A DNA stretch of 64,000 bases from Sandaracinaceae bacterium (GCA_016712745.1 JADJQN010000001.1:1879086-1943085), one strand, 5' to 3'; counted from the stretch's first letter, positions 1,271 through 40,502 are shown. A program made the numbers and translations. Notes: a model not told the origin generated them from the letters alone.

Positions 1271-2278
1271 CTAACTGAGCTTCGCGGCAACCAAAACTTG
1301 CCAACTTAGGTGTCGATCGGGACCGGCACCGTTCATAGTCGATGGAATGGGATGTACTTCCGCGCGCGAAAGTCCTGCGCGCTTGGCCCATTGAATAAGG
1401 TCTTCAGCAGGGAATCCGAGCCAAACATCGGCCTGATCCCCACGCATCGCTTCATCCTCGTGCGGAGCGTAGTCGATCACGACTACCGACCCGCCTTCGC
1501 GTAGAAGATCGGCAAGCGCCTTCATCGCATGTGCCGGGCGCGCGGCGTGATGCAAAACGCGCGACGCAAAAACCACATTCGCGCCGCCATGCTTTTTCAC
1601 CAGCGCGCGTACGTCGGCGTCGTCGATGTCGCCGCGAATGAGATCAACGTTCGCGTAGTTGCGTTTCGAGATGCGCTCTTGAGCCCGCGCGAGCTGCGCT
1701 TCTTCACGCTCCACACCAACGACGTGCTTGAAGACGGGCGCAAGCACATCGAGCAGCTTGCCCTCGCCGGTGCCGGCGTCTACTGCAAGCGCGCGCTGGG
1801 GAATGAGCGGAGCAAGAGCTGCGAGGTACGCCGGAAGCTCAGGAGGCAACTGCATCACGGCTCCGCCGTCGCGCGGCTTGCCGAAGAACTCACGTGTCTG
1901 CGCGTCGCGGGCGCGCACAATCGAAGCAACACGCGCAAGACTGCCGTCTTCGCTTGCAATGGCACGGCCCGACGCGAGGGCATCGGCGATCACGGGATCT
2001 TTGTCGGCGCCGTCCGCGAGCGCGACGAACACGCGCGTGCCCTGCTTGCGCTCCTTCAAGAGGCCCACGCGACGCAGGGACGAGATGTGGCGCGAGACGT
2101 TGGGCTGCGACTCTTCGAGGAGGTCCGCGAGCTCCCCGATTGCAAGCTCTTCGCTTGCCGTGAGAGCCAAAAGACGAAGGCGAATCGGCTCGCCGAGAAG
2201 CTTATAAAGCTCCCAACGAAGTGCCCCTTGGGTCTGAACGGCTGCATCCACATGCCTGATATATGCGATCATACGCAT
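1271..2278 (-). CDS. sahR: ArsR-type HTH fused to a class I SAM-methyltransferase-like domain; SahR-like regulator of the SAM/SAH cycle
   Basis: The N-terminus [51 protein letters not shown] is an ArsR/SmtB wHTH. The C-terminus [17 protein letters not shown]...VVGVE...[11 protein letters not shown] is a Rossmann SAM-binding fold. It lies 43 nt upstream of ahcY on the same strand, which is the architecture and context described for SahR. The start is uncertain: the tracked ORF runs to 2371, and I prefer ATG 2278/2272 or the GTG just downstream. Confidence 0.6.
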
Positions 2279-2299
2279 ACATGCAATCAGAAGATTATA
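2262..2299 (-). promoter_or_regulatory. Candidate -10 box and operator palindrome upstream of, or overlapping, the start of the SahR-like gene
   Basis: On the minus strand there is a perfect TATAAT (plus-strand attata, 2294-2299). The palindrome TATGCG-N6-CGCATA at 2262-2279 overlaps the candidate ATG starts. The near-palindrome GAATTCGCGCCAATTC at 2305-2320 lies just upstream. No convincing -35 box. Confidence 0.25.
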
Positions 2300-2462
2300 T
2301 CGCTGAATTCGCGCCAATTCGGCGGGGTCCGCGGGCGTGAATCCACGGCACAGCTGTGTATGACGCAGCACAGTGTAGGGCGCAGTGCGAAACCGATTAC
2401 GCGGCTTTACGCGCCTTTCCGACGAGGCACGGCGCTTGCTCTAGCGAGACCTCGGAGGCCAC

Positions 2463-3170
2463 ATGCTTTTCTTCGCAGACCAGTCCGTCGACGTCGTCAT
2501 CAAGCTCGTACGCGAGCGCTTCTTCAAAGATGCACCGCGCGCTTACGCCGATACGCACTCGGTCGCGCTCTCGCTTTTCGAAAGTGCCCCACCCTGTCGC
2601 GTGCTCGACATCGCAGCCGGACGCGGCGACCTGACGCGCAAGCTTATTAACCGTGGTCACCAGGTTACCGCGCTCGAATCCTACACGCCGCAGTTCAACG
2701 CGCCTTTCGCGACGCTCGTTGAAGGCGACGCAAACCGTGAGTGGCCCTTCCCTGACGCCTCGTTCGACGCGCTCTTTGGCATTGAGATCATCGAGCACGT
2801 GGAGAACCCGCGATTCTTCCTGCGCGAGGCCATGCGCGTGCTGCGCCCCGGTGGCATTGCGATCATTTCGACACCCAATCTCACCACGCTCGTCTCGCGC
2901 GTATTCTTTGGTGTGACGGGGCAATGGGATCTCTTCGTCAACAATCGCTTTCGCCTGCGCGATCCCTATGACGACGCGCTCGACGGGCACATTTCGCCCA
3001 TTCCGAACTGGCTACTGCGCCATCACGCTCGCGACGCAGGGCTTGAGCACGAGGAGACAGCGTATTCGCGCGCGTGGTTGCCCCTGCTCCCGTGGAAGCT
3101 CAATCCGCTTCCAGCGAGCGCGAGCTTTGGACGAATACTCGTCGCCCGCTTCAGGAAGCCGGTCGCGTAA
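2463..3170 (+). CDS. Class I SAM-dependent methyltransferase
   Basis: VLDIAAGRGDLTRKLINRGHQVTALE (motif I), FDALFGIEIIEHVENP, LRPGGIAIISTPN. Divergent from the SahR-like gene. Confidence 0.7.
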   Translation: MLFFADQSVDVVIKLVRERFFKDAPRAYADTHSVALSLFESAPPCRVLDIAAGRGDLTRKLINRGHQVTALESYTPQFNAPFATLVEGDANREWPFPDASFDALFGIEIIEHVENPRFFLREAMRVLRPGGIAIISTPNLTTLVSRVFFGVTGQWDLFVNNRFRLRDPYDDALDGHISPIPNWLLRHHARDAGLEHEETAYSRAWLPLLPWKLNPLPASASFGRILVARFRKPVA

Positions 3171-4569
3171 ACGGAACGGTCGCGCGAAAATCGAACCAAC
3201 CGTCGCTGCGACGAACGGATTCCAAATCTTCGTCCTGGTCGAGCGAGTGTCGATCCGCAAACCCCGCGTCGCGCGCCTTGCCTAGCCAAACGAGGGCTTT
3301 CTGAGGGTCGCCGGCCTTCGCAAACGAACGCGCGGTGTCGTACGCCAACCCCGGATCGGCGAAGCGCGCGAAGATGGTCTCCCCGAGCTTTCCCGCGATT
3401 TCGTACTGGCCAGCTGCGCGGGCTTCCTGCACGAGCGGCACGAGCTGAGCTGCGGCGAATACTTGCAAGTTGGCTGTGCTGACGAAGGCCAGCACCTCAT
3501 TCCAGTTGTTTGCATCCACGTGCGCGCGAATGATTGTCACTCCGAGGCCCGCATTGGGCTTGGCCTGCATCGCCTCCTCGAGCCGCGCGATCCCTGCTTC
3601 GAATTGCCCCGAGTGCACCATGACGATGCCTTCGAGGATCGGGTCAATCTCTTGCGTCTCGGAAATTCCCGAGAGCACATGCGCCGCGTCCGCGTAGTTC
3701 TTCTCGAATGTGAAGCTCCACGCGACAATCTCCGTCGCCGCGAGGCGCACGACGTCGGTCTTCGCCTCGGCTTGTGCACGGAGCGCGAGCTCACGCGCTT
3801 GTGGAAGTGCTCGCTGCGCCAAGAGCGTGCGCGCTTGCTCGAGCATGGGCAGCGCAACGCGATCACGCATGCGCACGAGCTCGCTGCGAAACGCGGTCCA
3901 CGATTGCAGCGCAAGCATCACGGTGACCATGGCCGTCCAATAGGACTGAATGCGCAACGAAAGAATTGCGAGCGTAGCCGCCAGCAGCATGGAGACAACG
4001 AGAGCCACACCTCGTCCGCGGCCCGGCGCGATGAGATCGGCAAACGAAGCAAAGACCTGTCCGCCATCGAGCGGAAAAATGGGAAGCAGGTTGAGCACGC
4101 CCCATCCGCCGTTCACGAAAAGGATGTAGCCAATGACAAGCTCACGCAGGGGCGCTCGTGCATCGCTCGCCCCGAGGGCTGCATCAAGTAAATGCATGGG
4201 ATGCATGCCGCCCACCATTGCGCCCAGTGCCACGATGCACGCGATGGCTATTCCTGTGAACGGGCCGGCCAGCGAAATTAGAATGCGTGCGCCAGACCCA
4301 ACCGGTTTTGCCGCATCCTGCTGCCACGCGGTTACGCCACCAAAGCCGTGCAAGGTAATCGTGGGCTTGTGGCCGAAGGCTAAAATTGCCAACGCGTGAC
4401 CAAACTCGTGTGCGAGCACGCCGGTAAAGACGACGAGCACCCACGCGAGGAGCGCGTCAGGGCGCGATAGCACCGACGTGTTGAGAATCAGCACGATGAC
4501 GAGAAACATCGGCTGCACGTGAATCGGCACGCCGAAAATGGTAAAGCCGCGTCGCTGCTTCTCGTTCAT
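3151..4569 (-). CDS. M50 (site-2 protease family) membrane metallopeptidase fused to a C-terminal TPR-like domain
   Basis: HEFGH zinc motif (VLAHEFGHALAILAF), a second M50 motif NLLPIFPLDGGQVF, and multiple TM segments. The C-terminal ~230 aa is helical-repeat or TPR-like. The gene starts 44 nt downstream of the 60-aa ORF on the same strand. Confidence 0.75.
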   Translation of the reverse strand: MNEKQRRGFTIFGVPIHVQPMFLVIVLILNTSVLSRPDALLAWVLVVFTGVLAHEFGHALAILAFGHKPTITLHGFGGVTAWQQDAAKPVGSGARILISLAGPFTGIAIACIVALGAMVGGMHPMHLLDAALGASDARAPLRELVIGYILFVNGGWGVLNLLPIFPLDGGQVFASFADLIAPGRGRGVALVVSMLLAATLAILSLRIQSYWTAMVTVMLALQSWTAFRSELVRMRDRVALPMLEQARTLLAQRALPQARELALRAQAEAKTDVVRLAATEIVAWSFTFEKNYADAAHVLSGISETQEIDPILEGIVMVHSGQFEAGIARLEEAMQAKPNAGLGVTIIRAHVDANNWNEVLAFVSTANLQVFAAAQLVPLVQEARAAGQYEIAGKLGETIFARFADPGLAYDTARSFAKAGDPQKALVWLGKARDAGFADRHSLDQDEDLESVRRSDGWFDFRATVPFTRPAS

Positions 4570-4613: not shown

Positions 4614-4796
4614 CTACGACGCAGAGAAGACTGGGCAGTTGATCGGGTCGCCCTTGCCACCCGGAGAGGTGCATGAGATTGCAAGCGCTTCGAGAGGCTC
4701 GCGATACAGGATGCGCGGGCGCTCGTAGGGTTTGCGAGGATTCTCGGTGGCTGCCGCCGCTAGCGTCGACGTCGGATCTGGATGCGTCTTGCTCAT
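4614..4796 (-). CDS. Candidate RiPP precursor peptide (60 aa)
   Basis: MSKTHPDPTSTLAAAATENPRKPYERPRILYREPLEALAISCTSPGGKGDPINCPVFSAS. Its ATG overlaps the rSAM stop codon (ATGA at 4793-4796). Third codon positions are GC-rich like the neighbouring genes. The N-terminal part is Cys-free and the C-terminal part has two Cys. No homology call is possible by eye. Confidence 0.45.
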   Translation of the reverse strand: MSKTHPDPTSTLAAAATENPRKPYERPRILYREPLEALAISCTSPGGKGDPINCPVFSAS

Positions 4797-5842
4797 GACG
4801 CCTCGCGAAGTAGCGGCAAATGCACGTGGGCTTTCTGCGGCGCGATCGAGCCCGGAACGTGCGGATTGCCCGTCTGAAGCTCAGCAAGGCCTGGACAGAA
4901 CGCAAACGCCCCCGTGACGCTCGCCTTTTGCGCGACTTCGTTGCGCACGGACACCGTGATGTCTCGCACCGCAGCCAACGTCTGCGACCCATTCCAAAGC
5001 TCGCGGATGGAGGCCTCGTGAAGATTGCCAATCGGGCGACGCCATTGAACGCAGGGCAGAACGTTGCCGTAAGGATCGATCGCGAGGTTCGACGCACCCG
5101 CGCCGCAATGCTTGTCGCGCGAATCAACGGGAGCATCGGCGTGACTCGGCACGGTCGAAAAATGCTCAAGCCGTTCGCTACGCGCTTTGAAGAATGCGTT
5201 CGTTTTCGAAACTCCCTCGGCAGTAGGCGCGAGGCTCAAGGGCGATAGATCTCCGTTGTCGCGTGGCTTCACCTCGGGGTCGACCTGCAACGCGATGCCA
5301 AGCGTCGCGGCGAGCGCGAACATCTCTTGCAGTTCATTCTCATTCCACCGCGTGAGCGTCGAGTTTGCCTTGACCCGCAGTCCGAGCGCGCGCATCTCGC
5401 CAATGTTTGCGATCAGCTGATTGAAACTGCCGCCAACGCGAGTCAGGCGATCGTGGGTCGCCGCCGTCGCGCCGTGCAGCGAGACCTCGACGAGGAAGGG
5501 ATCGATTTCGTCGCGAACGCGTCTCGCAAGCTCGGAGCTTAGCGCGTGACCATTCGACTTGATGCGGAGCACGAAGCCGCGATCGCGCGCCATTTTCCCG
5601 ATCTCGAAAAATTGTGGATGGGAAAGAGGTTCACCGCCGCTCAGAATCACGGTGAGCACGTTCATCGCCGCCAGCTCATCGAGAAGGACCTCGTATTGCT
5701 CGAGGCGCAACGGCCGGCCTTTGAGGGCCATGTCGTTGTAGCAAAACGCGCAATCGAGATTGCAGCGATACGTCAGCTCGAGGAGCACCGATAGGAGGTG
5801 ATTGTCGCGCCATGCGCGCTCAACCGAGGAGCGAAAACTCAT
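4793..5842 (-). CDS. Radical SAM/SPASM-domain peptide-modifying enzyme
   Basis: LELTYRCNLDCAFCYND (CxxxCxxC cluster), GGEPLSHP, and a C-terminal Cys-rich SPASM-like region HCGAGASNLAIDPYGNVLPCVQW...AFAFCPG. The start overlaps the PqqD stop codon (ATGA). Confidence 0.85.
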   Translation of the reverse strand: MSFRSSVERAWRDNHLLSVLLELTYRCNLDCAFCYNDMALKGRPLRLEQYEVLLDELAAMNVLTVILSGGEPLSHPQFFEIGKMARDRGFVLRIKSNGHALSSELARRVRDEIDPFLVEVSLHGATAATHDRLTRVGGSFNQLIANIGEMRALGLRVKANSTLTRWNENELQEMFALAATLGIALQVDPEVKPRDNGDLSPLSLAPTAEGVSKTNAFFKARSERLEHFSTVPSHADAPVDSRDKHCGAGASNLAIDPYGNVLPCVQWRRPIGNLHEASIRELWNGSQTLAAVRDITVSVRNEVAQKASVTGAFAFCPGLAELQTGNPHVPGSIAPQKAHVHLPLLREAS

Positions 5843-6126
5843 GGCGAGCCTGCTTTCTCGACAATGCCGGCTTCCTCGAGCTCGCGCGCGAATTCAGAGG
5901 CGTCCTGCTCGGCGACGAGCTTGTCCACGTCGAAGCGTTCCACGATGCATGCGGCAACGTCTCCAAGCGTGCGTGTTCCGTCGCGCATGAGCTCCAGCAT
6001 CGCCGCGCCGATACCGTTTAGCGCCACGACTTCAGCTCCGTCCAAGCGCACAACAACGCCTTCGTCTCCGACGACGCGGAAACGACAGCGTGACGACAAA
6101 CGATAGGGCTGCGCCAACTCGATCAT
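5839..6126 (-). CDS. PqqD-family peptide chaperone (RiPP recognition element)
   Basis: MIELAQPYRLSSRCRFRVVGDEGVVVRLDGAEVVALNGIGAAMLELMRDGTRTLGDVAACIVERFDV...ASEFARELEEAGIV fits the PqqD pattern. I trimmed the tracked ORF (to 6219) back to ATG 6126, which overlaps the upstream stop codon as ATGA. Confidence 0.7.
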   Translation of the reverse strand: MIELAQPYRLSSRCRFRVVGDEGVVVRLDGAEVVALNGIGAAMLELMRDGTRTLGDVAACIVERFDVDKLVAEQDASEFARELEEAGIVEKAGSP

Positions 6127-7076
6127 ACAGCGTCGACCCTCTCGCCTTGTGCAGAGTCGGATGAGATGAGCGACATGAAGCCGACATCTTTTGCAAAGCA
6201 GAGCGATTCGACTCGACACGATGTGACTATGTCTGCAATGACGCCCACGAGCGTGTCTGCGCGGTGCGGGTCGCTATTCACGAAGGGCGCGGCCGCAACC
6301 AGCATCGCGATGCTCTCCGCCTTGCCGAGCGGCGTAGTTCCGTGGACCTTGGCCTGTTTCAAACGGAAGATGCGGCGCAGCGGTACACGGACACAGCGCG
6401 TCGCGACTCGGCCGAGGTCGCCAGCAAATGGAACCTGGGCCACGTGGAGAGCGCCACTGTCGAGCGACAACGCGTTCAAGTCATCGCTCAAAACCGTGTA
6501 ACCAGCGGCCTGTGACAAACGCGCGACGGTGCTCTTACCCGCGCCGGACGGCCCGAACATCAGCAGCGCTTCGCCGTTCGCCACGATACCGGCGCTGTGT
6601 AAGAGAACGCCGCGCCCTTCGAGCAAGCGATACGCAACCAAAAGGCGAAAGAAGTTTTCAAAGACGATGGGAAATTCGTGCGCAGTGTCGGCGCTCGTCC
6701 AGAGCGCGGCGCGCGTTGTTTCGCCGAGCTGGATGCGACCCATAAATGATGGACCAGAAACGGACACGCTGTCCGTCTCGTACGTGAATGCAAGTTCGTA
6801 CACTCCGCGATCGAATACCGGCGGCAAGAAGTCGAAAGAGCCGGAACGGAACACAGCCACGTCAACACAAGCACCCGTAGCGACTGCGACCGAGTCAATG
6901 ATCATTGAGCCAAACGCCGGATCGATGGCCGCGCGTTGGCCCGCGGATAGTCCGTGCACGTGGTAGGGCCCGCCCGAAAAATCGATGTTCGCCACGAGAG
7001 CCCCGCATGGCTCGCCCGCCAAACGGCCCGGAAAGAGTTCGGGGTAGCGAATGAAGTGAGCGTGCGTCTTAGTCAT
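6123..7076 (-). CDS. HPr-kinase-related (HprK C-terminal-like) P-loop kinase
   Basis: LLHSAGIVANGEALLMFGPSGAGKSTVARLSQAAGYTVLSDDLNAL matches the HprK core (lHg..v...g.GvLi.G.SG.GKS..al.L...G..LvaDD). I trimmed to ATG 7076 (MTKTHAHF...), which overlaps the peptidase stop codon as ATGA. Confidence 0.7.
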   Translation of the reverse strand: MTKTHAHFIRYPELFPGRLAGEPCGALVANIDFSGGPYHVHGLSAGQRAAIDPAFGSMIIDSVAVATGACVDVAVFRSGSFDFLPPVFDRGVYELAFTYETDSVSVSGPSFMGRIQLGETTRAALWTSADTAHEFPIVFENFFRLLVAYRLLEGRGVLLHSAGIVANGEALLMFGPSGAGKSTVARLSQAAGYTVLSDDLNALSLDSGALHVAQVPFAGDLGRVATRCVRVPLRRIFRLKQAKVHGTTPLGKAESIAMLVAAAPFVNSDPHRADTLVGVIADIVTSCRVESLCFAKDVGFMSLISSDSAQGERVDAV

Positions 7077-7567
7077 GCGCCAAATCTCCGCGCAACCCCA
7101 TGCGCGGCCGAAGATAGAAACCATCGGGCCGCACTTAGCCGATCGGTAGTCCCAATCGACAGGCGGGTGCCCCACTCGTCGCGTGTGCTTACGCGCCCAA
7201 GCACTGAACTGATTGGCGTGAGCGCATCGGCAGCGGTGCCCGCATCAGCCTTTGTCACGGCGTGCAATGCCCCATTCTTCCATGCGTAGCCAAGGAAGCG
7301 ATGTACCGAGAGCGCCCCGTCGGACCGCGCATAAGCGATCACATCGCCTGGCCAAAGCCACCGGGTCGCCCGCACTCTGACGCGGGCCCCGCGCAGGAGT
7401 TGGGGCCGCATGCAATCTCCGGCGACGCGTATCTGAATTGCGTCATGCCCGATCACCGCTCGAAGCATGCTGGCTGAAATGTTCAACGGACGCCCTCCAG
7501 ATGGGCTCCGCGCCGTATCGCTGCCGGCTCCCCCTCGGAGTCCTAGGTTCAAGAGACCTAGATGCAA
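7073..7567 (-). CDS. S24/S26-fold (LexA/signal-peptidase-like) peptidase homologue with Cys and His at the Ser/Lys dyad positions
   Basis: IQIRVAGDCMRPQLLRGARVRVRA...PGDVIAYARSDGALSVHRFLG follows the S24 pattern v.GdSM.P.l..Gd.v.v...GDiv.....g...vKRl. The start is uncertain (7567, or the internal ATG at 7468). Confidence 0.5.
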   Translation of the reverse strand: MHLGLLNLGLRGGAGSDTARSPSGGRPLNISASMLRAVIGHDAIQIRVAGDCMRPQLLRGARVRVRATRWLWPGDVIAYARSDGALSVHRFLGYAWKNGALHAVTKADAGTAADALTPISSVLGRVSTRDEWGTRLSIGTTDRLSAARWFLSSAAHGVARRFGA

Positions 7568-7694
7568 ATCTGCGACGTTTCACTCATAGCACGCAGTCTC
7601 GGAGAATTGGGGAGCGGCTGAAAAAACGCGCTGATTTCCTAATATTGCCACGTACCAATCGCACGCGCTTTGAACGTGACGTATCTTCCCGCGC

Positions 7695-9329
7695 ATGACT
7701 CTCTCCTTCGATACGCACCCCGACCGATACAAGCACTGGAAGCTCTCTGTTGAGGGGGACATCGCCACGCTCGCGATGGACGTGGATCCGCAAGGCGGGC
7801 TCACGCCCGGCTACGAGCTGAAGTTGAACTCGTACGATCTTGGCGTAGACATTGAGCTCGCGGACGCCGTGCAACGTTTGCGGTTTGAACACCCCAATGT
7901 GAAGAGCGTCGTTGTGACGAGCGCAAACGACCGTGTGTTTTGCGCGGGTGCCAACATCCCGATGCTCGGAAGCTCAGCACACGCGTTCAAAGTGAACTTC
8001 TGCAAGTTCACAAACGAAACGCGTCTCTCCATTGAAGACGCCTCCGCGAAGAGCCAGCAAAAATACCTCGCCGCGGTCAACGGGCCATGTGCGGGCGGCG
8101 GCTACGAGCTAGCGCTGGCATGCGACGAGATTCTTCTCGTGGATGACGGCGCCTCGTCGGTGAGGCTGCCGGAAGTACCCCTTCTGGGAGTTTTACCCGG
8201 CACCGGTGGACTTACGCGTCTTGTCGACAAGCGCAAAGTGCGTCGTGATCGTGCGGATGTGTTTTGCACGACGAGTGAAGGCATTCGCGGCAAGCGCGCT
8301 GTCGAGTGGGGTCTGGTCGATGCGACAGCGCCCAAGAGTAAATTCGCGGATGCGGTCAAAGCTCACGCCGCGACGCTCGCCAAAAAGTCTGGCGCCAAGA
8401 GCAAAGGGCCCGGCATCGCGTTGGGACCCGTCGCGCCGCGCATCGAGGACGGCGTGTTTACGTACAAGTTTCTTACCATGAAGATTGATGCTGCGGCCCG
8501 CCGCGCTGACGTCGAACTGCGTGGCCCGGACGGCGCCCAGCCCAAGACCGCCGATGAGATTCAGGCGGCCGGCGCTATGCAATGGTCCCTTCACGCATTC
8601 CGCGAACTGGACGACGCGCTTTTGCGCCTACGTATCGAGCACTTGAATATCGGCCTCTTGGTATTGCGCACGCGCGGGAGCGTCGACGCTGTGCTTGCGG
8701 TGGACGAAGCGCTCTTCCAAGCGCGTGAGCACTGGCTGGCCAATGAGATCCTAGCGTTGCAGGCACGCGTCTTGCGGCGCCTCGACCTCACCTCGCGGAG
8801 CACCTTTGCGTTGGTCGACCAGGGTTCGTGTTTTGCTGGCAGCTTGCTTGAGCTCGCGCTCGCGTGTGACCGCATCTACATGCTTGCCGACGACGCAGAG
8901 AAAGTCGCCGTTGCGATCTCTTCATTGAACGGAGGGCTTCTGCTGATGAGCCACGGCGTCTCGCGTCTTCAAGCGCGTTTCCTAGCCGAGCCTGCGCGCG
9001 TGGAGCGCGTTCTTGCGACGAAGGGATTGATCACCACAGCCGATGCGGACGACCTGGGGCTCGTGACTGTGGCTCCCGACGAGATCGATTGGGACGACGA
9101 CGTACGCATCGCGCTGGAAGAGCGCGCGAGTATGTCGCCCGACGCTCTCACAGGCATGGAAGCGAGCCTGCGCTTTGCCGGTCCGGAAAGCTGCGACAGC
9201 AAAATCTTCGCGCGCCTGAGCGCCTGGCAGAATTGGATCTTCCAACGACCCAACGCGGTTGGTCCGCAAGGCGCGCTAACGAAGTATGGTCAACCGGATC
9301 GACCGACGTTTGATTGGAAGCGTTGCTAA
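7695..9329 (+). CDS. boxC: Benzoyl-CoA-dihydrodiol lyase (2,3-epoxybenzoyl-CoA dihydrolase), crotonase superfamily
   Basis: 544 aa. YELKLNSYDLGVDIELADAVQRLRFEHP, FCAGANIPMLG, KVNFCKFTNETR, GGGYELALACDEILLVDD, LPEVPLLGVLPGTGGLTRLVDKRKVRRDRADVF. These match BoxC as I remember it. Confidence 0.8.
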   Translation: MTLSFDTHPDRYKHWKLSVEGDIATLAMDVDPQGGLTPGYELKLNSYDLGVDIELADAVQRLRFEHPNVKSVVVTSANDRVFCAGANIPMLGSSAHAFKVNFCKFTNETRLSIEDASAKSQQKYLAAVNGPCAGGGYELALACDEILLVDDGASSVRLPEVPLLGVLPGTGGLTRLVDKRKVRRDRADVFCTTSEGIRGKRAVEWGLVDATAPKSKFADAVKAHAATLAKKSGAKSKGPGIALGPVAPRIEDGVFTYKFLTMKIDAAARRADVELRGPDGAQPKTADEIQAAGAMQWSLHAFRELDDALLRLRIEHLNIGLLVLRTRGSVDAVLAVDEALFQAREHWLANEILALQARVLRRLDLTSRSTFALVDQGSCFAGSLLELALACDRIYMLADDAEKVAVAISSLNGGLLLMSHGVSRLQARFLAEPARVERVLATKGLITTADADDLGLVTVAPDEIDWDDDVRIALEERASMSPDALTGMEASLRFAGPESCDSKIFARLSAWQNWIFQRPNAVGPQGALTKYGQPDRPTFDWKRC

Positions 9330-9330
9330 G

Positions 9331-10548
9331 CTAGCGCCGCGTCATCCAGACGTACGCTCCCGCTACAGCCGCAAGCACCAAGAGAGTTGTCCACAGCAGC
9401 CAGCGCGAGCGCCTCGCCGTTGGCGCTGTGTTCGGTGCAGCAGCGAGCGCGTGCTTGGGCAACGGCCGCGGGGCTGCACTGGGGATCGAAAACCGCGGAA
9501 CCTCGAGCGCTGCGCTTACACCAGGCTCCGAGAGGCGAGCCGGCGCTTTGAAAGCGATGTGATCGAGCGGCAAAGCTGCGACCGGGCTGTCTCCTGCTTC
9601 ACTGGCAACGCGCAGTGCCATCATAAGCGCCGACGGACTTGCGTACCTTTCCTCGGCTTTGACACTCATTGCTTTCGTCAGAATCGGAGAGATGTGCGCA
9701 AGCCTCGGCTCAATCGAGCCCAAGGACTGGATGCGCCCGTGCAAGATCGCACCGAGTAGCGTGGCGCGATCGATTTCTCCGAAGGGCGAGACGCCGGCGA
9801 GCGATTCGAAGATGCACAACGCGAGAGCATAGACATCGACCGTAGGGCCTGCGGACTTCGCCGACATGATTTGTTCGGGGGCCATGTACTTCGGCGTGCC
9901 GATCGAATCTCCAGTGCGTGTGAGAGTCCCGTCACCGACGAGCGACGAGAGACCAAAATCGAGCACCTTGAGCGGAGTCGGCCCGCTATCGAGCAGGAAT
10001 AGATTCTCGGGTTTCAAATCGCGGTGAACGATTCCGCGCGCATGCGCCGCGTCGATAGCGTCGGCGGCCGGAGTGAAAATGCGTAGCACTTCCGGCAGCG
10101 ACAATTTCTTCTCGCGCCGTAAACGAGCGCCCAGCGTTTCGCCTGCGAGGCGCTCCATCGCCATGAAGCAGGTTCCATCGTTCGCAACGCCGAGGTTGAA
10201 GAGGCGCACGACGGCGGGATGCTCGAGCGTGTTGAGGATTGCCCCTTCGCGCTTGAATCGCTCGCGCACACTGTCTTCATTGCCGGGCGCTCGCCGCAAG
10301 ATCTTGAGAATCACGGGGCGCTCTGCCGCGACTTCTGTCGCCTCGTAGACGAACGTCGTCCCATTCTTCGCGATCATCTTCTCGATGCAGTACGCGTCCG
10401 CGTAGATCGCGCCAGGCGAGAACGCCTTTACGACCACCGTAGCCACGCCGTCGTCGAAAGATTGAGTCACAGCAGATACCCCAGCGTATTTTGGCCCCGC
10501 GAAAACACAAGCCTTTGATTCGCCACCCAAGACCGTGAGCCAGCGCAC
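9331..10548 (-). CDS. Eukaryote-like Ser/Thr protein kinase with a C-terminal TM anchor
   Basis: VILKIL (catalytic Lys), HRDLKPENLFL, DFGLS, GTPKYMAPE. The Gly-rich loop is degenerate (IAKNGTTFVY). C-terminal TM segment WLLWTTLLVLAAVAGAYVW. The N-terminal start is uncertain. Confidence 0.85.
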   Translation of the reverse strand: MRWLTVLGGESKACVFAGPKYAGVSAVTQSFDDGVATVVVKAFSPGAIYADAYCIEKMIAKNGTTFVYEATEVAAERPVILKILRRAPGNEDSVRERFKREGAILNTLEHPAVVRLFNLGVANDGTCFMAMERLAGETLGARLRREKKLSLPEVLRIFTPAADAIDAAHARGIVHRDLKPENLFLLDSGPTPLKVLDFGLSSLVGDGTLTRTGDSIGTPKYMAPEQIMSAKSAGPTVDVYALALCIFESLAGVSPFGEIDRATLLGAILHGRIQSLGSIEPRLAHISPILTKAMSVKAEERYASPSALMMALRVASEAGDSPVAALPLDHIAFKAPARLSEPGVSAALEVPRFSIPSAAPRPLPKHALAAAPNTAPTARRSRWLLWTTLLVLAAVAGAYVWMTRR

Positions 10549-10583
10549 GGCGCGGCCGAGCTATCGCCATTATCCTCCCCGGT

Positions 10584-12002
10584 ATGTCGCTCACTGACTC
10601 CATTCCGAACAATGTCGACCTCGCATCCGACCCCAAGCTCCTGCGAGCTCTCGAAAAATGGCAGCCAAACTTTCTCTCCTGGTGGCGCGACATGGGGCCG
10701 GACGGCTTCCAAGAAGACAAGATTTGGCTTCGCACGGCGATCTCCGTCGACTCCAATGGCTGGGCTCAGTACGACTACGTGAAGATGCCGGACTACCGCT
10801 GGGGCATTTTCTTGGCCGAGCGCAAAGAGGAACGCCCGATTCAGTTTGGCGATCACATCGGCAAAACTCCTTGGGCCGACGTGCCGGGCGAGTTGCGCGG
10901 CATTCTGCGTCGCATCATCGTGACGCAAGCGCATACGGAACCGGCTAGCGTTGAGCAGCAGCGCCTCTTGGGAAAAACCGCACCCTCGCTCTACGACCTC
11001 CGCAACCTCTTTCAGGTGAACGTTGAAGAAGGTCGTCACCTCTGGGCGATGGTGCACTTGCTCCATCAGTACTTCGGACGCGACGGTCGTGAAGAAGCTG
11101 AAGCCTTGCTCGAACGTCGCAGCGGCGACCCCGACAAACCGCGCATCTTGCAAACATTCAACGAGACGACGAGCGAATGGCTCTCCTTCTTCATGTTCAC
11201 AATGTTCACCGACCGCGACGGAAAGTATCAGCTCGCATCGCTAAGCGAATCGGGATTTGATCCGTTAGCGCGTTGCACGCAGTTCATGTTGACCGAAGAA
11301 GCATTCCATCTCTTCTGCGGTGAGACAGGCATCGATCGGGTCGTACGAAAATCAGCCGAGCTCACCGCCAAGGATCCGAATGGCGACGCGCGCAAGCTGG
11401 GCGGCATCGACATTCCCACGATTCAGAAATGGATCAACTTCTGGTTTTCGAGCGCAGTCGAGCTCTTTGGCGGCGAGATCAGCAGCAACGCCGCCGATTA
11501 CTTCGCAACAGGTCTGAAGGGGCGCTACCGCGAAGACAAGTACAGCGACCACGTCGCGATGGAAAACATCTACTCCATGGACGTTCTCGAGGATGGCCGT
11601 TTGACGAAGCGCGAAGTGCCGATGCGCACCGCGCTCAACGAAGTCCTCCGAGATGAGTACGTCGAAGATTGCGAACGCGCCGTGCGCAAGTGGAATAAGA
11701 CTATCGAAGCGGCTGGGCTCTCGGAGCGGCTCTTCCTGCCAAGCCGTCGTTTCAATCGCAGCATGGGCATGTACGCAGGATTTCACTTCTCGGTCACGGG
11801 CGAGCCGCTTACACGCGAGCAGTTCGAAGCCAAGCGCGACGAATGGCTGCCAACTGCTGCCGACCGCGCCTATGTCCAATCGCTCATGAAACCCGTCTAC
11901 GAGCCAGGTCAGTTCGCGTCCTGGATCGCGCCACCGCTTCACGGGGTCAAGGGAACGCCCATCGACTACGAGTACGTGAAGTTCAACGAACGCGAGCGCT
12001 AG
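10584..12002 (+). CDS. boxB: Benzoyl-CoA 2,3-epoxidase (oxygenase) component B, diiron enzyme
   Basis: 472 aa. Two ExxH motifs (NVEEGRHLWAM, LTEEAFHLFCGE). The N-terminus SIPNNVDLASDPKLLRALEKWQPNFLSWW and the overall length match BoxB. Confidence 0.85.
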   Translation: MSLTDSIPNNVDLASDPKLLRALEKWQPNFLSWWRDMGPDGFQEDKIWLRTAISVDSNGWAQYDYVKMPDYRWGIFLAERKEERPIQFGDHIGKTPWADVPGELRGILRRIIVTQAHTEPASVEQQRLLGKTAPSLYDLRNLFQVNVEEGRHLWAMVHLLHQYFGRDGREEAEALLERRSGDPDKPRILQTFNETTSEWLSFFMFTMFTDRDGKYQLASLSESGFDPLARCTQFMLTEEAFHLFCGETGIDRVVRKSAELTAKDPNGDARKLGGIDIPTIQKWINFWFSSAVELFGGEISSNAADYFATGLKGRYREDKYSDHVAMENIYSMDVLEDGRLTKREVPMRTALNEVLRDEYVEDCERAVRKWNKTIEAAGLSERLFLPSRRFNRSMGMYAGFHFSVTGEPLTREQFEAKRDEWLPTAADRAYVQSLMKPVYEPGQFASWIAPPLHGVKGTPIDYEYVKFNERER

Positions 12003-12005
12003 GCT

Positions 12006-13748
12006 GTGACGAAAGCGCGTCCGTCTCTCGCAAGCCTCGCGCGTGGCTTTCGGTCGAGCTATCTCTCGTGGACGGATATCGAGGCGCAGCTTCGTGCGTG
12101 GGCTGATGCCTATCCGGAGATCGCCCATCTCGAGTCGATCGGGAAAACGAAAGAGGGACGCGAGCTCTGGGTACTCACGCTGGGACGCGACCCCCTACGC
12201 GTTCGTCCGGCCGTTTGGATCGACGGTAACATGCATGCGAGCGAGCTCTGCGGATCGAGCGTAGCGCTTGGCATCGCCGAAGATATTCTCGCGCTGCATT
12301 TGAACGCGACGACCGAGCATGTGCGCGAGCTTCCTGCCCACACGCTGGCGACACTCGAGAACGTTCTCTTCCACATCATGCCGCGCATCTCGCCCGACGG
12401 TGCGGAGGCTGTGCTCACCACCGGCAAGTACGTGCGTTCGGTTCCTCGCGATCGCAGACCCAACAAGAACCACGCCTATTTTACGGCATACGACGTTGAC
12501 GGTGACGGCGAGGCGCTACTTATGCGCGTGCAAGATCCCACGGGCGAATACGTCGAATCGAAGAACGAGAAAGATCTGATGCTGTTGCGTCGGCTCGAAG
12601 ACGAGGGCCCTTTCTACAAGATCTATCCGGAGGGGCTCATCGAGAACTTCGATGGCTCGCATGTGCCGTCGCCCACCTTTCTCTCTGACAACGACACAGA
12701 TCTCAATCGCAACTTTCCGCATTCGTGGCTGCCTGAACCCGAGCAGGTCGGTGCCGGACGCTTTGCGTTGAGCGAGCCCGAGTCGCGTGCCGTCGTGGAG
12801 TTCACGTCCGCTCGCCCTCATATCTTCGCTTGGTTGAATCTGCACACCTTTGGTGGCGTGTTCATCAGGCCGCTCGGCGACAAGCCCGATACGAAGATGA
12901 ACCCTGAGGATCTCGCGCTCTTCCGCGAGATCGGACGCTGGAACGAAAAGCTGACCGGCTACCCCACAGTCAGTGGCTTTGAAGAGTTTACGTACGAGCC
13001 TGACAAGCCGCTGCACGGCGACCTTAGCGACTACGCCTATGTACAACGCGGGTGCATCGCGTACGTGTGCGAGCTTTGGGATCTCTTCCGTCAGATCGGA
13101 ATGGAGAAGCATAAACGCTTCGTCGATCACTACACGCACATGACGCGCGAGGACCTCGAGCGCCTCGCCAAATGGGATCGCGAGAAGAATCGGGGACGGA
13201 CCGTGCGACCGTGGCGCGCGTTCAAACATCCGCAACTTGGCGAAGTCGAACTGGGCGGAATTGATTCCCGCGTAGGTCTGTGGAATCCGCCGTACGAGAT
13301 GCTCGACGAAATCTGTCGCGCTCAAAGCGCGGCGTTCTTGCGTGTTGCCGCACTTGCTCCGCGTCTCATCATCGCCGACATCACACAGGCGAAGCTCGGG
13401 GAGCAGATCACCGAGGTCACCCTCACCGTGAGAAACGACGGTTATCTCCCAACATACGTGCTCGCCTCATCCAAAGCCCTCGCGTGGAACGAACCGCTAT
13501 ACGCCACGCTCACACGCCGCACGCCGACACTGAGTATCCATCCGGGCGACGCGCGCCGTGAACTGGGACACCTCGACGGCTGGGGCCGCGGCCAATTTGG
13601 CGAAGGTAACTCGATCTTCTTTCAGCGCAGCCGCGGAAGCACCGCCTCGCGTACCGTCCGACTTCAAGTGAAGGGGCGCGGACCACTCAGGTTGAGCATC
13701 GGCAGCTGCCGGGTTGGCTACGTCGAGACTGAAATTGAAATCAGCTGA
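12006..13748 (+). CDS. M14-family zinc carboxypeptidase-like protein
   Basis: [14 protein letters not shown] (HxxE zinc ligands), NRNFP, NLHTFGG. The GTG start lies 3 nt after the boxB stop codon. Confidence 0.7.
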
Positions 13749-13771: not shown

Positions 13772-14527
13772 CTACGAGCTGCTGATCGCGTCGGAGTGGC
13801 AGAAGCGGCGCGTGCCGGAAAGATCGGTTCGTACTTGGCAGGCATAACCGCCGGGGCATTCGCAATCTGCACGGCACTTGATCTCGCACGAGTACGTGGT
13901 GCCAAGAGCGGAGGTGTTCGCTGCGCACTCATAGCCTGTGCCGCAGGCTTCGGCATCTCCAGGATCGCACGTCACGCCCACTGCGCCTCCGCCCGGGGCT
14001 GCAAGGCACGCGCTTTCTGGCAGCCTGCAAAAGTGGTGAGTCCCGGCTTTGTCTGAAATCGTAGCGCACGTAAACTCGTCCGGGCACTCGCATGCGGTGG
14101 TGCACGGGATCTCGCAGTGCGGCGGTCCGGCAACGATGCCCGTCATGCTGAAGCATTCGTAATCAGACGGGCAGACTTCTTCGCCATCGTCGCAACCGGC
14201 ACCGGCGTAAAGTCCTTCGTCACTTACCGACTCGAGGCACATGCCTGCGTCGCCGCCTGACCCGCTATCGATGCTGAAGCCAGCATCGGCGCCGAGGTCG
14301 GGCCTGACGTTCGCATCGACGCCACTGTCGATGATCACGTCTGCGTCGAATCCTGCGTCGCGTGACCCACCGTCCGTGCTCGTTCCGAGATCGGACGCAC
14401 TCGCATCACCCGCAGTTCCGCTGTCAGCAGCGCCCGAGTCCGTACCGGGCACGCCTGCGGGGTCATCGCTGCAGGCAACAAGGAAAATTCCGACAAGTAA
14501 GGAGAAGCGCAAGCCATGCATCGTCAT
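13772..14527 (-). CDS. Secreted Cys-rich lipoprotein with an internal duplication
   Basis: Signal peptide and lipobox LLVGIFLVAC, followed by a low-complexity D/S/G linker. Two related modules: ...CECPDEFTCATISDKAGTHHFCRLP and ...CECPGGYACQVRTDLSGTRRFCHSD. Confidence 0.6.
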   Translation of the reverse strand: MTMHGLRFSLLVGIFLVACSDDPAGVPGTDSGAADSGTAGDASASDLGTSTDGGSRDAGFDADVIIDSGVDANVRPDLGADAGFSIDSGSGGDAGMCLESVSDEGLYAGAGCDDGEEVCPSDYECFSMTGIVAGPPHCEIPCTTACECPDEFTCATISDKAGTHHFCRLPESACLAAPGGGAVGVTCDPGDAEACGTGYECAANTSALGTTYSCEIKCRADCECPGGYACQVRTDLSGTRRFCHSDAISSS

Positions 14528-14598
14528 GGGTGACAGTTATGACACACGTGGCGGGGCCTTTGCAGTATCTGAGCGTTTCGGTAATAAGCTGGGCTTGC

Positions 14599-14826
14599 AT
14601 GATCGAGGATCACGAAGAGCGCGTGTTGGCTGTGCACCTCGGACGTAGCGCGAATTGCTCGTCGATCGGCAGTGTCGTCGACATGCTCTTTGTTAGTGGC
14701 GTTGTCGGAGCCGCCCTTTTGTCGGCGCTCGCCGTGATGCTGCGGTCGCCCAAGGGCAACAACGAGCCCCATCAGCCAGATGCCGAAGCGGCGGCGACCG
14801 AGCAACCGCCCGAGGACTCGGAGTGA
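14599..14826 (+). CDS. Hypothetical small single-TM protein (75 aa) coupled to the second rSAM gene
   Basis: MIEDHEERVLAVHLGRSANCSSIGSVVDMLFVSGVVGAALLSALAVMLRSPKGNNEPHQPDAEAAATEQPPEDSE. GC3-rich. Its TGA overlaps the GTG start of the rSAM gene (GTGA at 14823-14826). The start is uncertain (alternative ATG encoding MLFVSG...). Confidence 0.3.
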   Translation: MIEDHEERVLAVHLGRSANCSSIGSVVDMLFVSGVVGAALLSALAVMLRSPKGNNEPHQPDAEAAATEQPPEDSE

Positions 14827-16016
14827 AAGGCGGCGTGCGAGCTCGAGCCGAACGCTTCGGCGCGATCGTGGCGATGGACGAGCCGCCCGCGCTGATCTCG
14901 GTGAACCGCGCGTTCGCACGGCGGTTGGGCGTTGCTCCGGATGGACAATGGGGCGAAGACGAAGCAGGTCTCGAGATCGAAGTGCTGCGTGCACCCACGG
15001 AGGTGCACCTCGCTGCGACCATGCGATGCCCCGCAGCATGCACATCGTGCTACGCGGATGCGACGCCGCGCGGTCACGAGCCAAGCTTTGACGAGGTAGT
15101 CGCGCGCATCGACGCACTCGCTAGCGCATCGGTTTTCTCGATCGCCTTTGGCGGTGGGGAAGCGGCTTTGCGCGAGGACATCGTGAAGCTCGCCGCCCAC
15201 GCCCGCGCGCGCGGCCTGATGCCTACCCTCACCACGAGCGGGCTTGGCATGAACTCCAAACGCGCCGAGTCGTTCCGAGTCTTCGCACAGGTGAACGTAA
15301 GCTACGACGGCGCGACAGATGTATCAACAAGCGTTCGCGGCTACGACGGCGCTACGGTCGCAAAAGAAGCGATGCGATGTTTGGGCGAAGCCGGCGTTCC
15401 GTTCGGCATCAACACAGTTCTCACGCGAACTAGCTACGAGCACGTGGCCGACACCGCGCGCGACGTGCAGGCACTCGGCGCGTGCGAGATGCAGCTCTTG
15501 CGTTTTAAACCTTCTGGGCGGGGCCGGATGAACTACCTCGCCGAGCGCCTGACGTTCGCGCAAATCGATTCATTTGCCGAGACGCTTCGCACGCTATCTA
15601 CCCGCCACAGCTTCGCGTTGCGAATCGATTGCGCGCTGATGCCTTTCTTGGTGCAAGCCAAGGACGTGTCGCCAGAAGCCATCGCGACTTTTGGGGTGAT
15701 GGGTTGCGAAGCGGGCCGTTCGCTTTGCGCGACCAAGTCCGACGGAAGCATGTCTCCGTGTAGTTTTTGGGACGGAGGCCCAAGCGGCGAGCTCGACTTT
15801 CAAGAGGCGTGGGAGAAAGACCCAACGCTAAGCGCGTTTCGGTCCTACGTGCGCAACGCCCCCGAACCCTGCAAGAGCTGCGAATTTCGACAAGTGTGTC
15901 GAAGCGGATGCCGCATCGTAGCCCGTGAGCTGACGGGCGATGCGTTTGCGCCCGATCCCGAGTGCCCTCGCGTGCGATCTATGAGAGAAACAGACCCGGC
16001 AAGGAGCTCGACATGA
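14823..16016 (+). CDS. Radical SAM/SPASM-domain protein (second copy in the window)
   Basis: ATMRCPAACTSCYA (CxxxCxxC), FGGGEAALRED, and a C-terminal Cys cluster GCEAGRSLCATKSDGSMSPCSFW...PCKSCEFRQVCRSGCR (SPASM/twitch-like). The start is GTG 14823 or the downstream ATG (MDEPP...). Confidence 0.8.
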   Translation: MKGGVRARAERFGAIVAMDEPPALISVNRAFARRLGVAPDGQWGEDEAGLEIEVLRAPTEVHLAATMRCPAACTSCYADATPRGHEPSFDEVVARIDALASASVFSIAFGGGEAALREDIVKLAAHARARGLMPTLTTSGLGMNSKRAESFRVFAQVNVSYDGATDVSTSVRGYDGATVAKEAMRCLGEAGVPFGINTVLTRTSYEHVADTARDVQALGACEMQLLRFKPSGRGRMNYLAERLTFAQIDSFAETLRTLSTRHSFALRIDCALMPFLVQAKDVSPEAIATFGVMGCEAGRSLCATKSDGSMSPCSFWDGGPSGELDFQEAWEKDPTLSAFRSYVRNAPEPCKSCEFRQVCRSGCRIVARELTGDAFAPDPECPRVRSMRETDPARSST

Positions 16017-16402
16017 AGAATACCGTTCTCGCCCCCGCAGTTCTCGCCTCGGCAATCCTGGCCTGCGTTGGTTGTGGCGCGCAAGCAAACAGCCGCGCCA
16101 CGCTCGAAGAGCTCAAGGCCGCGATGGGCGCACGCTCGACAACGCCAGGCGACCGCGAGGCAAACACTCAGCTTGCCGTGCGCGTGGTCGAGGAAGGCGC
16201 GCTCGAAAACCTCCGTCGTGACGAGGTCATCGATGCGATTGGGCGCGGCAATCCTTGCAGCGTTCGCCCCGCCTGCGCGGAGCGCGGTTACGAAGACGAC
16301 GATTGGATCTACGACATCGGGGACGACCCGACGGCACCATCGATCGTGGTCGGTTTCGACACGAGCGGTCGCGTCAGCCGCAGTACGTACATCACGCACT
16401 GA
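16013..16402 (+). CDS. Small lipoprotein (possibly SmpA/OmlA/BamE-like fold)
   Basis: MKNTVLAPAVLASAILACVGCG (lipobox). Its ATG overlaps the rSAM stop codon (ATGA at 16013-16016). I trimmed the tracked ORF (from 15962). The fold assignment is only a guess from ...WIYDIG...VVGFDTSGRV. Confidence 0.5.
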   Translation: MKNTVLAPAVLASAILACVGCGAQANSRATLEELKAAMGARSTTPGDREANTQLAVRVVEEGALENLRRDEVIDAIGRGNPCSVRPACAERGYEDDDWIYDIGDDPTAPSIVVGFDTSGRVSRSTYITH

Positions 16403-16407
16403 TTTTC

Positions 16408-40339: not shown

Positions 40340-40413
40340 CGCACCCGGGTGGACTCGAACCACCGACCTGCGGCTTAGAAGGCCGATGCTCTATCCAACT
40401 GAGCTACGGGCGC
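40340..40413 (-). tRNA. tRNA-Arg (anticodon TCT)
   Basis: The reverse complement GCGCCCGTAGCTCAGTTGGATAGAGCATCGGCCTTCTAAGCCGCAGGTCGGTGGTTCGAGTCCACCCGGGTGCG folds as a cloverleaf. Acceptor stem 7 bp with one G-U pair, T-arm GGTGG/CCACC, anticodon loop CT-TCT-AA. CCA is not encoded. Confidence 0.9.
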
Positions 40414-40425
40414 TTGTATCGAGAC

Positions 40426-40502
40426 TGGTCGGGGAGGAGGGATTCGAACCCACGACAACCAGCTCCCAAAGCTGGTGCACTACCAGGCTGTGCTACTCCC
40501 CG
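40426..40502 (-). tRNA. tRNA-Pro (anticodon TGG)
   Basis: Reverse complement CGGGGAGTAGCACAGCCTGGTAGTGCACCAGCTTTGGGAGCTGGTTGTCGTGGGTTCGAATCCCTCCTCCCCGACCA. Acceptor stem CGGGGAG/CTCCCCG, anticodon stem CCAGC/GCTGG, loop TT-TGG-GA. CCA is encoded. There is one U-U mismatch in the T-stem. Confidence 0.85.

Follow-up and report, generated by a model that had tools for sequence, protein, structure and literature searches.

A five-gene radical SAM operon of a Sandaracinaceae bacterium related to the linear polyphosphorylated peptide systems

Linear polyphosphorylated peptides (LPP) of Bacillota were first described by Popov et al. (Nat Commun 2026, PMC13381572). The gene set is named LppA/K/B/S/D/N, and its core comprises the signal peptidase I (SpI)-like peptidase LppS (Ser29/His68/Asp93), the discrete recognition element LppB, the HprK-like kinase LppK, the NTP-transferase LppN and an exporter. 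LppS cuts the leader only with the recognition element present, and LppK polyphosphorylates the core at Ser +3. The motif of the leader reads YxxPxVLxHQxIxFET|xxS; it has its Tyr at -16 and a functionally important Leu at -10, and the clusters are often located within capsular-polysaccharide loci. LPP were stated to be restricted to Bacillota, and radical S-adenosylmethionine (SAM) enzymes are unmentioned; among the entries of the supplement are a few SpI homologues of the Ser type, encoded in unexplored clusters of Acidobacteriota and Myxococcota, and none of the Cys type (PMC13381572). The paeninodin-type lasso kinases phosphorylate the conserved C-terminal Ser of their precursor, for which His-Lys-Asp-Asp residues are essential, and PsmN extends the phosphate in pseudomycoidin (review PMC9266682). 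Here we describe a five-gene operon (7486..4614, minus strand) in a 64-kb stretch of a Sandaracinaceae bacterium genome (the whole analysed stretch of 64,000 nucleotides is called the window). With a probability of about three in four, we consider it a maturation operon for a peptide synthesized by the ribosome and modified after translation (RiPP) of the LPP/paeninodin-type phosphorylated-peptide lineage, to which a radical SAM step has been added.

Six consecutive open reading frames (ORFs) occupy the minus strand from 7567 to 3151. The five genes of the operon encode a predicted SpI-like leader peptidase of 137 aa (7073..7486), an HprK/PEPCK-fold P-loop kinase of 317 aa carrying Pfam PF27840 'ScmC' (6123..7076), a PqqD-family RiPP recognition element (RRE) of 95 aa (5839..6126), a radical SAM enzyme of 349 aa with a partial SPASM/Twitch-like domain (4793..5842) and a 60-aa precursor, whose leader (residues 1-39) lies at 4680..4796 and whose predicted 21-residue core, ISCTSPGGKGDPINCPVFSAS, occupies 4614..4679 together with the stop codon. 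The sixth frame (3151..4569) encodes an accessory M50-TPR metalloprotease of 472 aa and begins after a gap of 44 nt. The preliminary description, made from the sequence alone, had read all four gene junctions as ATGA stop/start overlaps of one coupled unit, and we found every overlap exactly where it had been placed, at 7076-7073, 6126-6123, 5842-5839 and 4796-4793. Its five gene assignments also hold, as judged from the Pfam matches (PqqD, Radical_SAM and SPASM), the kinase fold with its His/Lys/Asp-Asp residues and the conservation of the 60-aa ORF.

For the first gene, TTG 7486 is the most likely start, in preference to the maximal-ORF TTG 7567, because a Shine-Dalgarno sequence (GGAGGG, 7498-7493) is placed 6 nt 5' of TTG 7486 and the resulting 137-aa product agrees with the orthologue length. 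For the kinase, the coupled ATG 7076 replaces the maximal-ORF GTG 7175 as start codon. The 4-nt overlaps are also present in orthologous operons (loci L003 and L034-L038 of our comparison, and L029 of Acidobacteriota), and the four enzymes co-occur with the peptide across the metagenome loci described below; the arrangement is therefore beyond chance, and the operon is a real, translationally coupled one that matures a small conserved peptide. A terminator scan revealed no terminator-like site between the operon genes or before the M50-TPR gene. Judging from the gene layout, the promoter presumably lies in the intergenic region 7487..7694, which separates the operon from a divergent enoyl-CoA-hydratase-family gene (7695..9329); when the operon and this upstream region were scanned for promoters, terminators and inverted repeats, no sigma-70 consensus or inverted repeat came up.

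Through tblastn, we found a homologue of the 60-aa product directly adjoining the radical SAM gene in every related locus, close or distant. The peptide gene is on the same strand as the radical SAM gene in close relatives and on the opposite strand in four Acidobacteriota loci. A profile search extended the peptide family to 1,223 clusters, all of them nameless and without a Pfam domain. When the last 39 codons of the window gene were compared with those of three orthologues, 18-22 of the 23-30 differing nucleotides were at codon position 3. Since substitutions concentrate at third positions, homologues stand beside the radical SAM gene and the family is this large, the small ORF is a real coding gene for a conserved precursor.

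A [Y/W]xxPx[ILV] leader motif is found in all members (118 parsed database peptides and 79 complete metagenome peptides). In the window precursor the motif reads Y24-E-R-P-R-I-L, of the RRE-binding type, and A37-L-A39, where cleavage is predicted, closes the leader. With a cut after A-L-A, the sequence YERPRILYREPLEALA|ISC would fall in the LPP register, with Y at -16 and L at -10. Position -1 is Ala and position -3 is A/T/V/S in all 118 database and 79/79 metagenome peptides; likewise Cys +3, a second Cys and a C-terminal Ser are present in 118/118 and 79/79 members. A Lys is placed between the two Cys in 135/135 distinct cores, and the C-terminal Ser is the sole invariant hydroxyl residue of the core. 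The commonest core type has 23 residues (xxCxPxPPAKxNxGxCPxGPISS); that of the window belongs to a rarer 21-residue type.

The peptidase contains the boxes GDCMRP, PGDVIAY, HRFLGY and TKAD...D, which would form a Cys-His-Asp active site. An S24-like Cys/His peptidase had been proposed for this gene; the Cys/His site stands, and the archaeal/endoplasmic reticulum (ER)-type SpI fits better than a LexA-type S24. The protein scored 20.5 bits against Pfam Peptidase_S24, below the gathering cutoff of 23.3, and matched the archaeal signal peptidase model TIGR02228 sigpep_I_arch at 1.5e-5 (24.9 bits, cutoff 51.85). A word-index search with this short protein gave two relatives, and an exhaustive HMMER search was needed to reach the 555 representatives (at 50% identity) of the family. 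In a 151-sequence alignment, of which 148 sequences cover the nucleophile position, 133 have Cys there and 15 Ser, with no other residue; His-Arg is present in 151/151, and there is next to no variation in Pro-Gly-Asp or in the pair of box-E Asp. The best PDB match of the family profile is human SEC11A, with the Cys aligned on the nucleophile Ser (GdCMaP on SGSMEP, HR on HR and TraD..D on TKGDNNAVDD). The AlphaFold2 model has a mean confidence (pLDDT) of 94.5, and Foldseek ranked SEC11C/A first, followed by LexA, SipA and SpsB. We found no hydrophobic segment in the protein. Considering the profile, the alignment, the model and this lack of a hydrophobic segment, the enzyme is best taken as a predicted soluble, archaeal/ER-type SpI-like peptidase with a Cys-His-Asp site, and it is better described by the S26B (SipW/SEC11) label than by LexA-type S24. 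We know of no tested precedent for a Cys-for-Ser swap in the signal-peptidase fold. The public gene call of this peptidase (database protein P0241, 7073..7411) has 112 aa and begins at the Met within GDCM; the call removes the catalytic Cys, so that automatic annotation conceals the active site of the family.

The kinase residues H160, K181 and D198-D199 are invariant among 28 homologues. A word-index search gave 598 homologues, all annotated as 'hypothetical' and mostly from Thermoanaerobaculia. A Pfam scan of the kinase gave matches to P-loop models only; in the precomputed Pfam annotation, PF27840 'ScmC' is assigned to the window protein (P0001) and to nearly all of the 120 homologues among the matches listed. 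The AlphaFold2 model (pLDDT 91.4) resembled PEP carboxykinases and the HPr kinase/phosphatase 1ko7 in Foldseek. The kinase profile aligned with an LppK-like kinase of Paenibacillus cremeus (L015) at 99% probability (hhalign, E 6.5e-18, 149 columns), and the L015 kinase agrees with the LppK fragment printed in the Popov supplement. This P. cremeus locus, with its LppK-like kinase, RRE, ABC exporter, NTP_transf_5 and lasso cyclase genes, served as comparator for the kinase only; no SpI gene was found in it, and it was dropped as a full LPP comparator. The best NCBIfam match of the kinase is ScmC, with 36.9 against a cutoff of 125, and HprK_rel_A reached 34.1 against 200. A scan of the genome collection with the kinase alignment followed a generic P-loop pattern; two close loci were among the matches listed, and the distant loci proved useful.

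The RRE matched Pfam PqqD with 1.2e-13 (51.5 bits, cutoff 23.4), and its best NCBIfam match is the lasso PqqD chaperone, below the cutoff of that model. The radical SAM enzyme matched Radical_SAM (1.1e-20) and SPASM (9.4e-9), both above cutoffs. Only six Cys are invariant among 10 orthologues, namely CxxxCxxC (C27/C31/C34) and C246, C264 and C316, and the CxxCx5Cx3C motif is absent from all of them. With only three C-terminal Cys conserved and this motif missing, the C-terminal domain is Twitch-like and only partially SPASM, with a single auxiliary-cluster site of three Cys ligands; thus the radical SAM/SPASM assignment of the preliminary description is kept and a full SPASM domain is not. The closest solved relatives are PqqE (6c8v, the best), SkfB and CteB. 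The best named NCBIfam matches are NirJ, MftC, AhbD and PqqE; MftC reached 111.8 against 265, PqqE 93.6 against 381, and ScmF and ScmE 81.5 and 79.7 against 400, and the enzyme is far below the cutoffs of the AlbA, PapB, StsB and SkfB models. A search with the five operon products, which the preliminary description had suggested, and with the M50 product brought none of them to a curated NCBIfam cutoff, including those of the Scm (ScmC/D/E/F), HPr-rel-A, lasso, PQQ and mycofactocin models.

For a census of linkage, 80 independent metagenome loci were recovered via the peptide homologue. A total of 34 are co-directional, with the window order of SpI, kinase, PqqD, radical SAM and peptide, another 34 are convergent, one is peptide-first and 11 are too short to place. 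All four enzymes are present in 17/17 co-directional and 13/14 convergent loci with enough flank (30/31 in total), and the linkage holds across three different gene orders. Conservation of both neighbourhood and small ORF, proposed as a check in the preliminary description, is thereby borne out. The M50-TPR protease, which had also been noticed there, is a polytopic, site-2-protease type protein that contains HEFGH and LDG motifs and carries a TPR domain at its C-terminus (Peptidase_M50 1.1e-9, above cutoff; TPR_19 and TPR_END_plus). Its gene lies 3' of the peptide gene in L003, L034-L038 and L043, always so in the subfamily of the window, and among the loci compared it is absent from other subfamilies.

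In the window's subfamily a 1,400-aa Peptidase_C25-domain protein is coupled upstream of the operon; in NCBIfam it best matches PorU, the type IX secretion sortase, at 227 bits against a cutoff of 420, and PorU-like C25 relatives are linked to the system in three lineages. A C25-like gene is sometimes found directly 5' of the peptide gene in Acidobacteriota, where Wzy_C, TPR and NTP_transf_5 genes surround the block together with an exopolysaccharide (EPS) priming glycosylphosphotransferase gene (TIGR03025, above cutoff). An NTP_transf_5 gene is immediately 3' of the peptide gene in about 35 loci of the co-directional group. The window contains an NTP_transf_5 gene at 16255..17280 on the plus strand (Pfam 45.6 bits, cutoff 31.2), whose best matches among all loci compared are the peptide-adjacent NTP_transf_5 genes (about 30% identity, E down to 2e-17); it could be a relocated partner, a candidate in which we place low confidence. 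We examined the 1,408-aa ORF at 59757..63983 as a displaced C25 partner and found it unrelated (BLASTP E 0.79). This ORF carries many ...TSQPTA[SN]VT... repeats with Calx-beta-like and Laminin_G_3 domains and looks like an adhesin-like surface protein.

A looser form of the toolkit was observed in metagenome-assembled genomes of Nitrospirota, Verrucomicrobia and Acidobacteriota (L009-L012 and L023), in the order PqqD, radical SAM/SPASM, peptide and ScmC-like kinase, with a SpI-like gene after the kinase in L010 and L012. Their precursor-like ORFs read PYxxPx[LIV]...GCK...C...GS and end in Ser; ScmC-type cassettes may use precursors of this kind. We rejected these distant loci as true Scm cassettes, all NCBIfam Scm cutoffs being missed. 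In L012 (8185..15885) a Ser-type SpI-like domain (GQSMQP) stands in frame at the start of a 2,566-aa ORF, which may be a fusion to a giant protein or a maximal-ORF artefact. In L001 a second set (10785..12915), located about 2.5 kb downstream of the system, comprises PqqD, a lasso B2-like Transglut_core3, a 319-aa weak kinase match and NTP_transf_5; it is HPr-rel-A or lasso-like, and no cyclase is visible in the available stretch.

We propose that the PqqD-type RRE binds the 60-aa precursor via the Y-x-x-P-x-I-L leader motif; from this point on, we infer the steps and their order. The radical SAM enzyme would modify the core at the invariant Cys/Lys residues, most likely forming one or two thioether-type cross-links. 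The HprK-like kinase would then phosphorylate a Ser, most likely the invariant C-terminal Ser60, an assignment suggested by the analogy with paeninodin-type kinases, by this Ser being the only invariant core hydroxyl and by the Ser-ended ORFs of the distant ScmC-type loci. In most relatives NTP_transf_5 would probably decorate the phosphate further, as PsmN does. The soluble SpI-like Cys-His-Asp peptidase would cut after A37-L-A39 and release the 21-residue core, and in the window's subfamily the membrane M50-TPR protease may provide further processing or an export-linked step. The EPS context and the near-invariance of the core favour a conserved role, cellular or linked to envelope/EPS, over that of an arms-race antibiotic or typical bacteriocin.

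Several points weigh against this maturation scheme. The LPP phosphosite is Ser +3, not the C-terminus; since Cys stands at +3 here, it is by analogy with the lasso peptides that the phosphate is assigned to the C-terminus. The nearest named relatives of the radical SAM enzyme are cofactor enzymes (NirJ, MftC, AhbD and PqqE), not sactisynthases, and the reaction could therefore be epimerisation, C-C coupling or another one. The PorU-like C25 partner of close relatives is missing from the window, where tblastn revealed no C25 relative, and the NTP_transf_5 gene lies 9 kb from the operon. No exporter is encoded in the operon, and no ABC (MsbA-like) exporter was found in the window. The family is known from sequences and models alone, and the activity of a Cys nucleophile in a signal-peptidase fold is only predicted.

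Two other readings concern the product. The peptide could be an antimicrobial bacteriocin of the sactipeptide/ranthipeptide kind, with phosphorylation as a minor tailoring or self-protection step, as a Cys-containing core beside a Twitch/partial-SPASM radical SAM enzyme and an RRE would suggest, SkfB and CteB being among the solved relatives. We consider this unlikely: strong purifying selection keeps the core nearly identical across Acidobacteriota and other lineages, whereas bacteriocin cores are variable; no exporter or immunity gene is present; and the system is chromosomal, syntenic and within EPS loci. Near-invariance of the core across phyla, as in PqqA and MftA, would instead fit a sacrificial scaffold for a small redox cofactor, like those of PQQ or mycofactocin, and so would the PqqD partner, the two proteases and a radical SAM enzyme with NirJ, MftC, AhbD and PqqE as best named matches and PqqE as best solved relative. 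Against such a scaffold, the cofactor-family cutoffs are missed widely (MftC 112 vs 265, PqqE 94 vs 381), the core lacks Glu/Tyr or a C-terminal Val-Tyr, no cofactor-dependent dehydrogenase is linked, and the kinase, the SpI-like peptidase, NTP_transf_5 and the polysaccharide context are LPP/paeninodin-type features; we therefore regard it as quite improbable.

The other two readings concern the cleavage and the substrate. The SpI-like Cys enzyme might be a thioester transpeptidase/acyl-transferase or an inactive scaffold, with M50 or the PorU-like C25 protein making the cut. The swap of Cys for Ser has no known tested precedent in this fold, SipA is a non-catalytic fold member, PorU-like C25 'sortase' relatives are linked in three lineages, and an M50 protease lies 3' of the peptide gene in the window's subfamily. 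But the restriction of the nucleophile to Cys/Ser (133:15), together with the invariant His, Arg and both Asp, is what would be expected of an active hydrolase; LppS, a homologue, has been proven to remove its leader in an RRE-dependent manner, 79/79 peptides obey the small-residue rule at -3/-1, and C25 and M50 are each missing from many loci. A non-peptidase thus seems hardly probable to us. That the small ORF is no substrate at all, and that a polysaccharide or some other protein is the target of the enzymes instead, is suggested by the polysaccharide-gene context in Acidobacteriota and by the peptide gene being on the opposite strand in half of the loci. This is very improbable, as the peptide gene is adjacent in every arrangement, its RRE-type leader motif is in register with a proven precursor, and its codons evolve as coding sequence. 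None of the four fits the homology of kinase, SpI and NTP_transf_5 with LPP as well as the maturation of a phosphorylated, LPP/paeninodin-type peptide with an added radical SAM step.

A bolder extension of this maturation reading, which is speculative and on balance doubtful, would be a phylum-spanning pathway to one near-invariant, non-antibiotic peptide, which would be cross-linked by the radical SAM enzyme, phosphorylated at the C-terminus, decorated, and passed to envelope machinery (PorU-like C25 transpeptidase relatives, Wzy_C-type membrane proteins and an EPS priming transferase) as an EPS building block or anchor, or as a conserved signal. The peptidase would in that case be the first natural Cys-nucleophile branch of the S24/S26 fold.

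SpI-like leader peptidases were new to the RiPP field in 2026, through one Bacillota family of obscure function. The recognition, cleavage and kinase module extends far outside Bacillota, with at least about 1,200 peptide clusters, to Acidobacteriota and the lineage of the window, and in looser form to Nitrospirota and Verrucomicrobia. The four invariant core positions (Cys, Lys, Cys and C-terminal Ser) give sharp predictions for cross-link, phosphosite and cleavage site. The extreme conservation and the polysaccharide-locus setting point to a conserved physiological role, which may help to explain the purpose of LPP and paeninodin-type peptides, and the family offers likely precursors for the long-orphan ScmC-type cassettes.

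Outside the operon, the region 13772..17280 of the window looks like a second possible peptide-modification locus. It contains a gene for a predicted lipoprotein of 251 aa (13772..14527, minus strand), which is rich in Cys and has ...AISSS at its end, a full radical SAM/SPASM gene (14823..16016, plus strand; best NCBIfam matches MftC and GeoRSP, below cutoff) adjoining the NTP_transf_5 gene, and a 146-aa ORF. Methionine/SAM-cycle genes recur near the system (window, L003, L035 and L029-L033): the window and close relatives have a methyltransferase gene (2463..3170) and an ArsR-HTH/SAM-methyltransferase fusion (1271..2371), which we take to be SahR-like, and the Acidobacteriota neighbours include MetH and MTHFR. 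These could be functional, as SAM supply for the radical SAM step, or due to chance. An M14 zinc carboxypeptidase of 580 aa (12006..13748) is located 4.4 kb from the operon, and action on the peptide C-terminus is possible in principle. The divergent 544-aa enoyl-CoA hydratase-family gene, a Ser/Thr protein kinase gene (9331..10548, minus strand) and a 472-aa weak PaaA/PaaC match (all within 7695..12002) resemble a set for aromatic-CoA catabolism and seem to have no relation to the operon. Two adjacent tRNA genes (40340..40502, minus strand) were the only Rfam matches in the window.

Compared with known systems, the operon shares with the sactipeptide/ranthipeptide maturases (SkfB, CteB, PapB and AlbA) the radical SAM core with an auxiliary-cluster domain and an RRE-assisted, Cys-containing precursor. 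The domains and the Cys-containing core would allow a thioether from Cys sulfur to carbon, installed by the radical SAM enzyme. However, only three auxiliary Cys are conserved here, and a kinase and a SpI-like peptidase are foreign to those classes. The PQQ/mycofactocin systems differ in that PqqE and MftC are not reached by score and the core, which ends in Ser, lacks both Tyr and Glu. With the SynChlorMet and HPr-rel-A cassettes the operon has in common the Pfam 'ScmC' domain of the kinase, PqqD and a PqqE-like radical SAM enzyme. Unlike SynChlorMet, it has one radical SAM gene instead of two, a SpI-like peptidase and a defined precursor; against the SynChlorMet models (TIGR04248-04251) the window products gave low scores for ScmC, ScmE and ScmF and no match for ScmD, and against the HPr-rel-A models (TIGR04352/TIGR04353) PqqD_rel_X, like HprK_rel_A, was below cutoff (21.1 vs 35).

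The paeninodin-type systems (PadeK/ThcoK/PsmK and PsmN) are closer. The likeness lies in an HprK-like kinase with His-Lys-Asp-Asp, an invariant C-terminal Ser, a PqqD RRE recognising [Y/W]xxP and an NTP_transf_5-type partner, whereas the window uses a predicted SpI-like enzyme for leader removal and a radical SAM step. The preliminary description had noted that no lasso cyclase or B2 gene is present, and this proved correct: no Asn-synthetase-like cyclase or B2 domain was found in the six products, and tblastn with lasso cyclase and B2 gave nothing in the 64-kb window. With the signal peptidases I of the ER and archaea (S26B: SEC11A/C and SipW) the peptidase shares the fold and the four conserved boxes (B-E), the His general base and aligned Asp residues, and its substrates keep small residues at -3/-1. 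In contrast to S26B members, which have a Ser nucleophile and a membrane anchor, the nucleophile is Cys in 133/148 of the family, no anchor is present, and the predicted substrate is a cytoplasmic RiPP leader.

The closest relatives are the LPP systems. The preliminary description had taken the whole combination of genes as undescribed; this still applies to the full set, which is unnamed in NCBIfam, while the module of SpI-like peptidase, RRE and HprK-like kinase has been known since 2026 from LPP (PMC13381572). In the searchable literature (which leaves subscription journals outside), we found no description of an LPP-type module combined with a radical SAM enzyme. Without an NCBIfam name or a found description are thus the union with radical SAM, the Cys nucleophile, the Cys/Lys/Cys/Ser core, the breadth outside Bacillota and the M50-TPR and PorU-like partners. 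The window, like 133/151 family representatives, has Cys in place of Ser29, with His and Asp kept; HQ..FET is replaced by RE[PS]LEAxA, and position +3 is an invariant Cys instead of phospho-Ser. Unlike the LPP core cluster, the window system includes a radical SAM gene, has no exporter and keeps NTP_transf_5 outside the operon. The cores of the family are near-invariant, with 19-25 residues, whereas LPP have 35-200 aa and variable C-termini; the system occurs in Acidobacteriota and other non-Bacillota lineages, and the window's subfamily adds M50-TPR. The two systems agree in a SpI-like gene two genes away from a discrete RRE (PqqD) in one coupled operon, in a kinase homologous to LppK, in the YxxPx[VI]L part of the leader with matching spacing, in an NTP_transf_5 partner in most relatives and in polysaccharide loci as the setting in many genomes. 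The operon is therefore a widespread, unnamed, radical-SAM-containing relative of the LPP systems, functionally LPP-like and forming a distinct branch.

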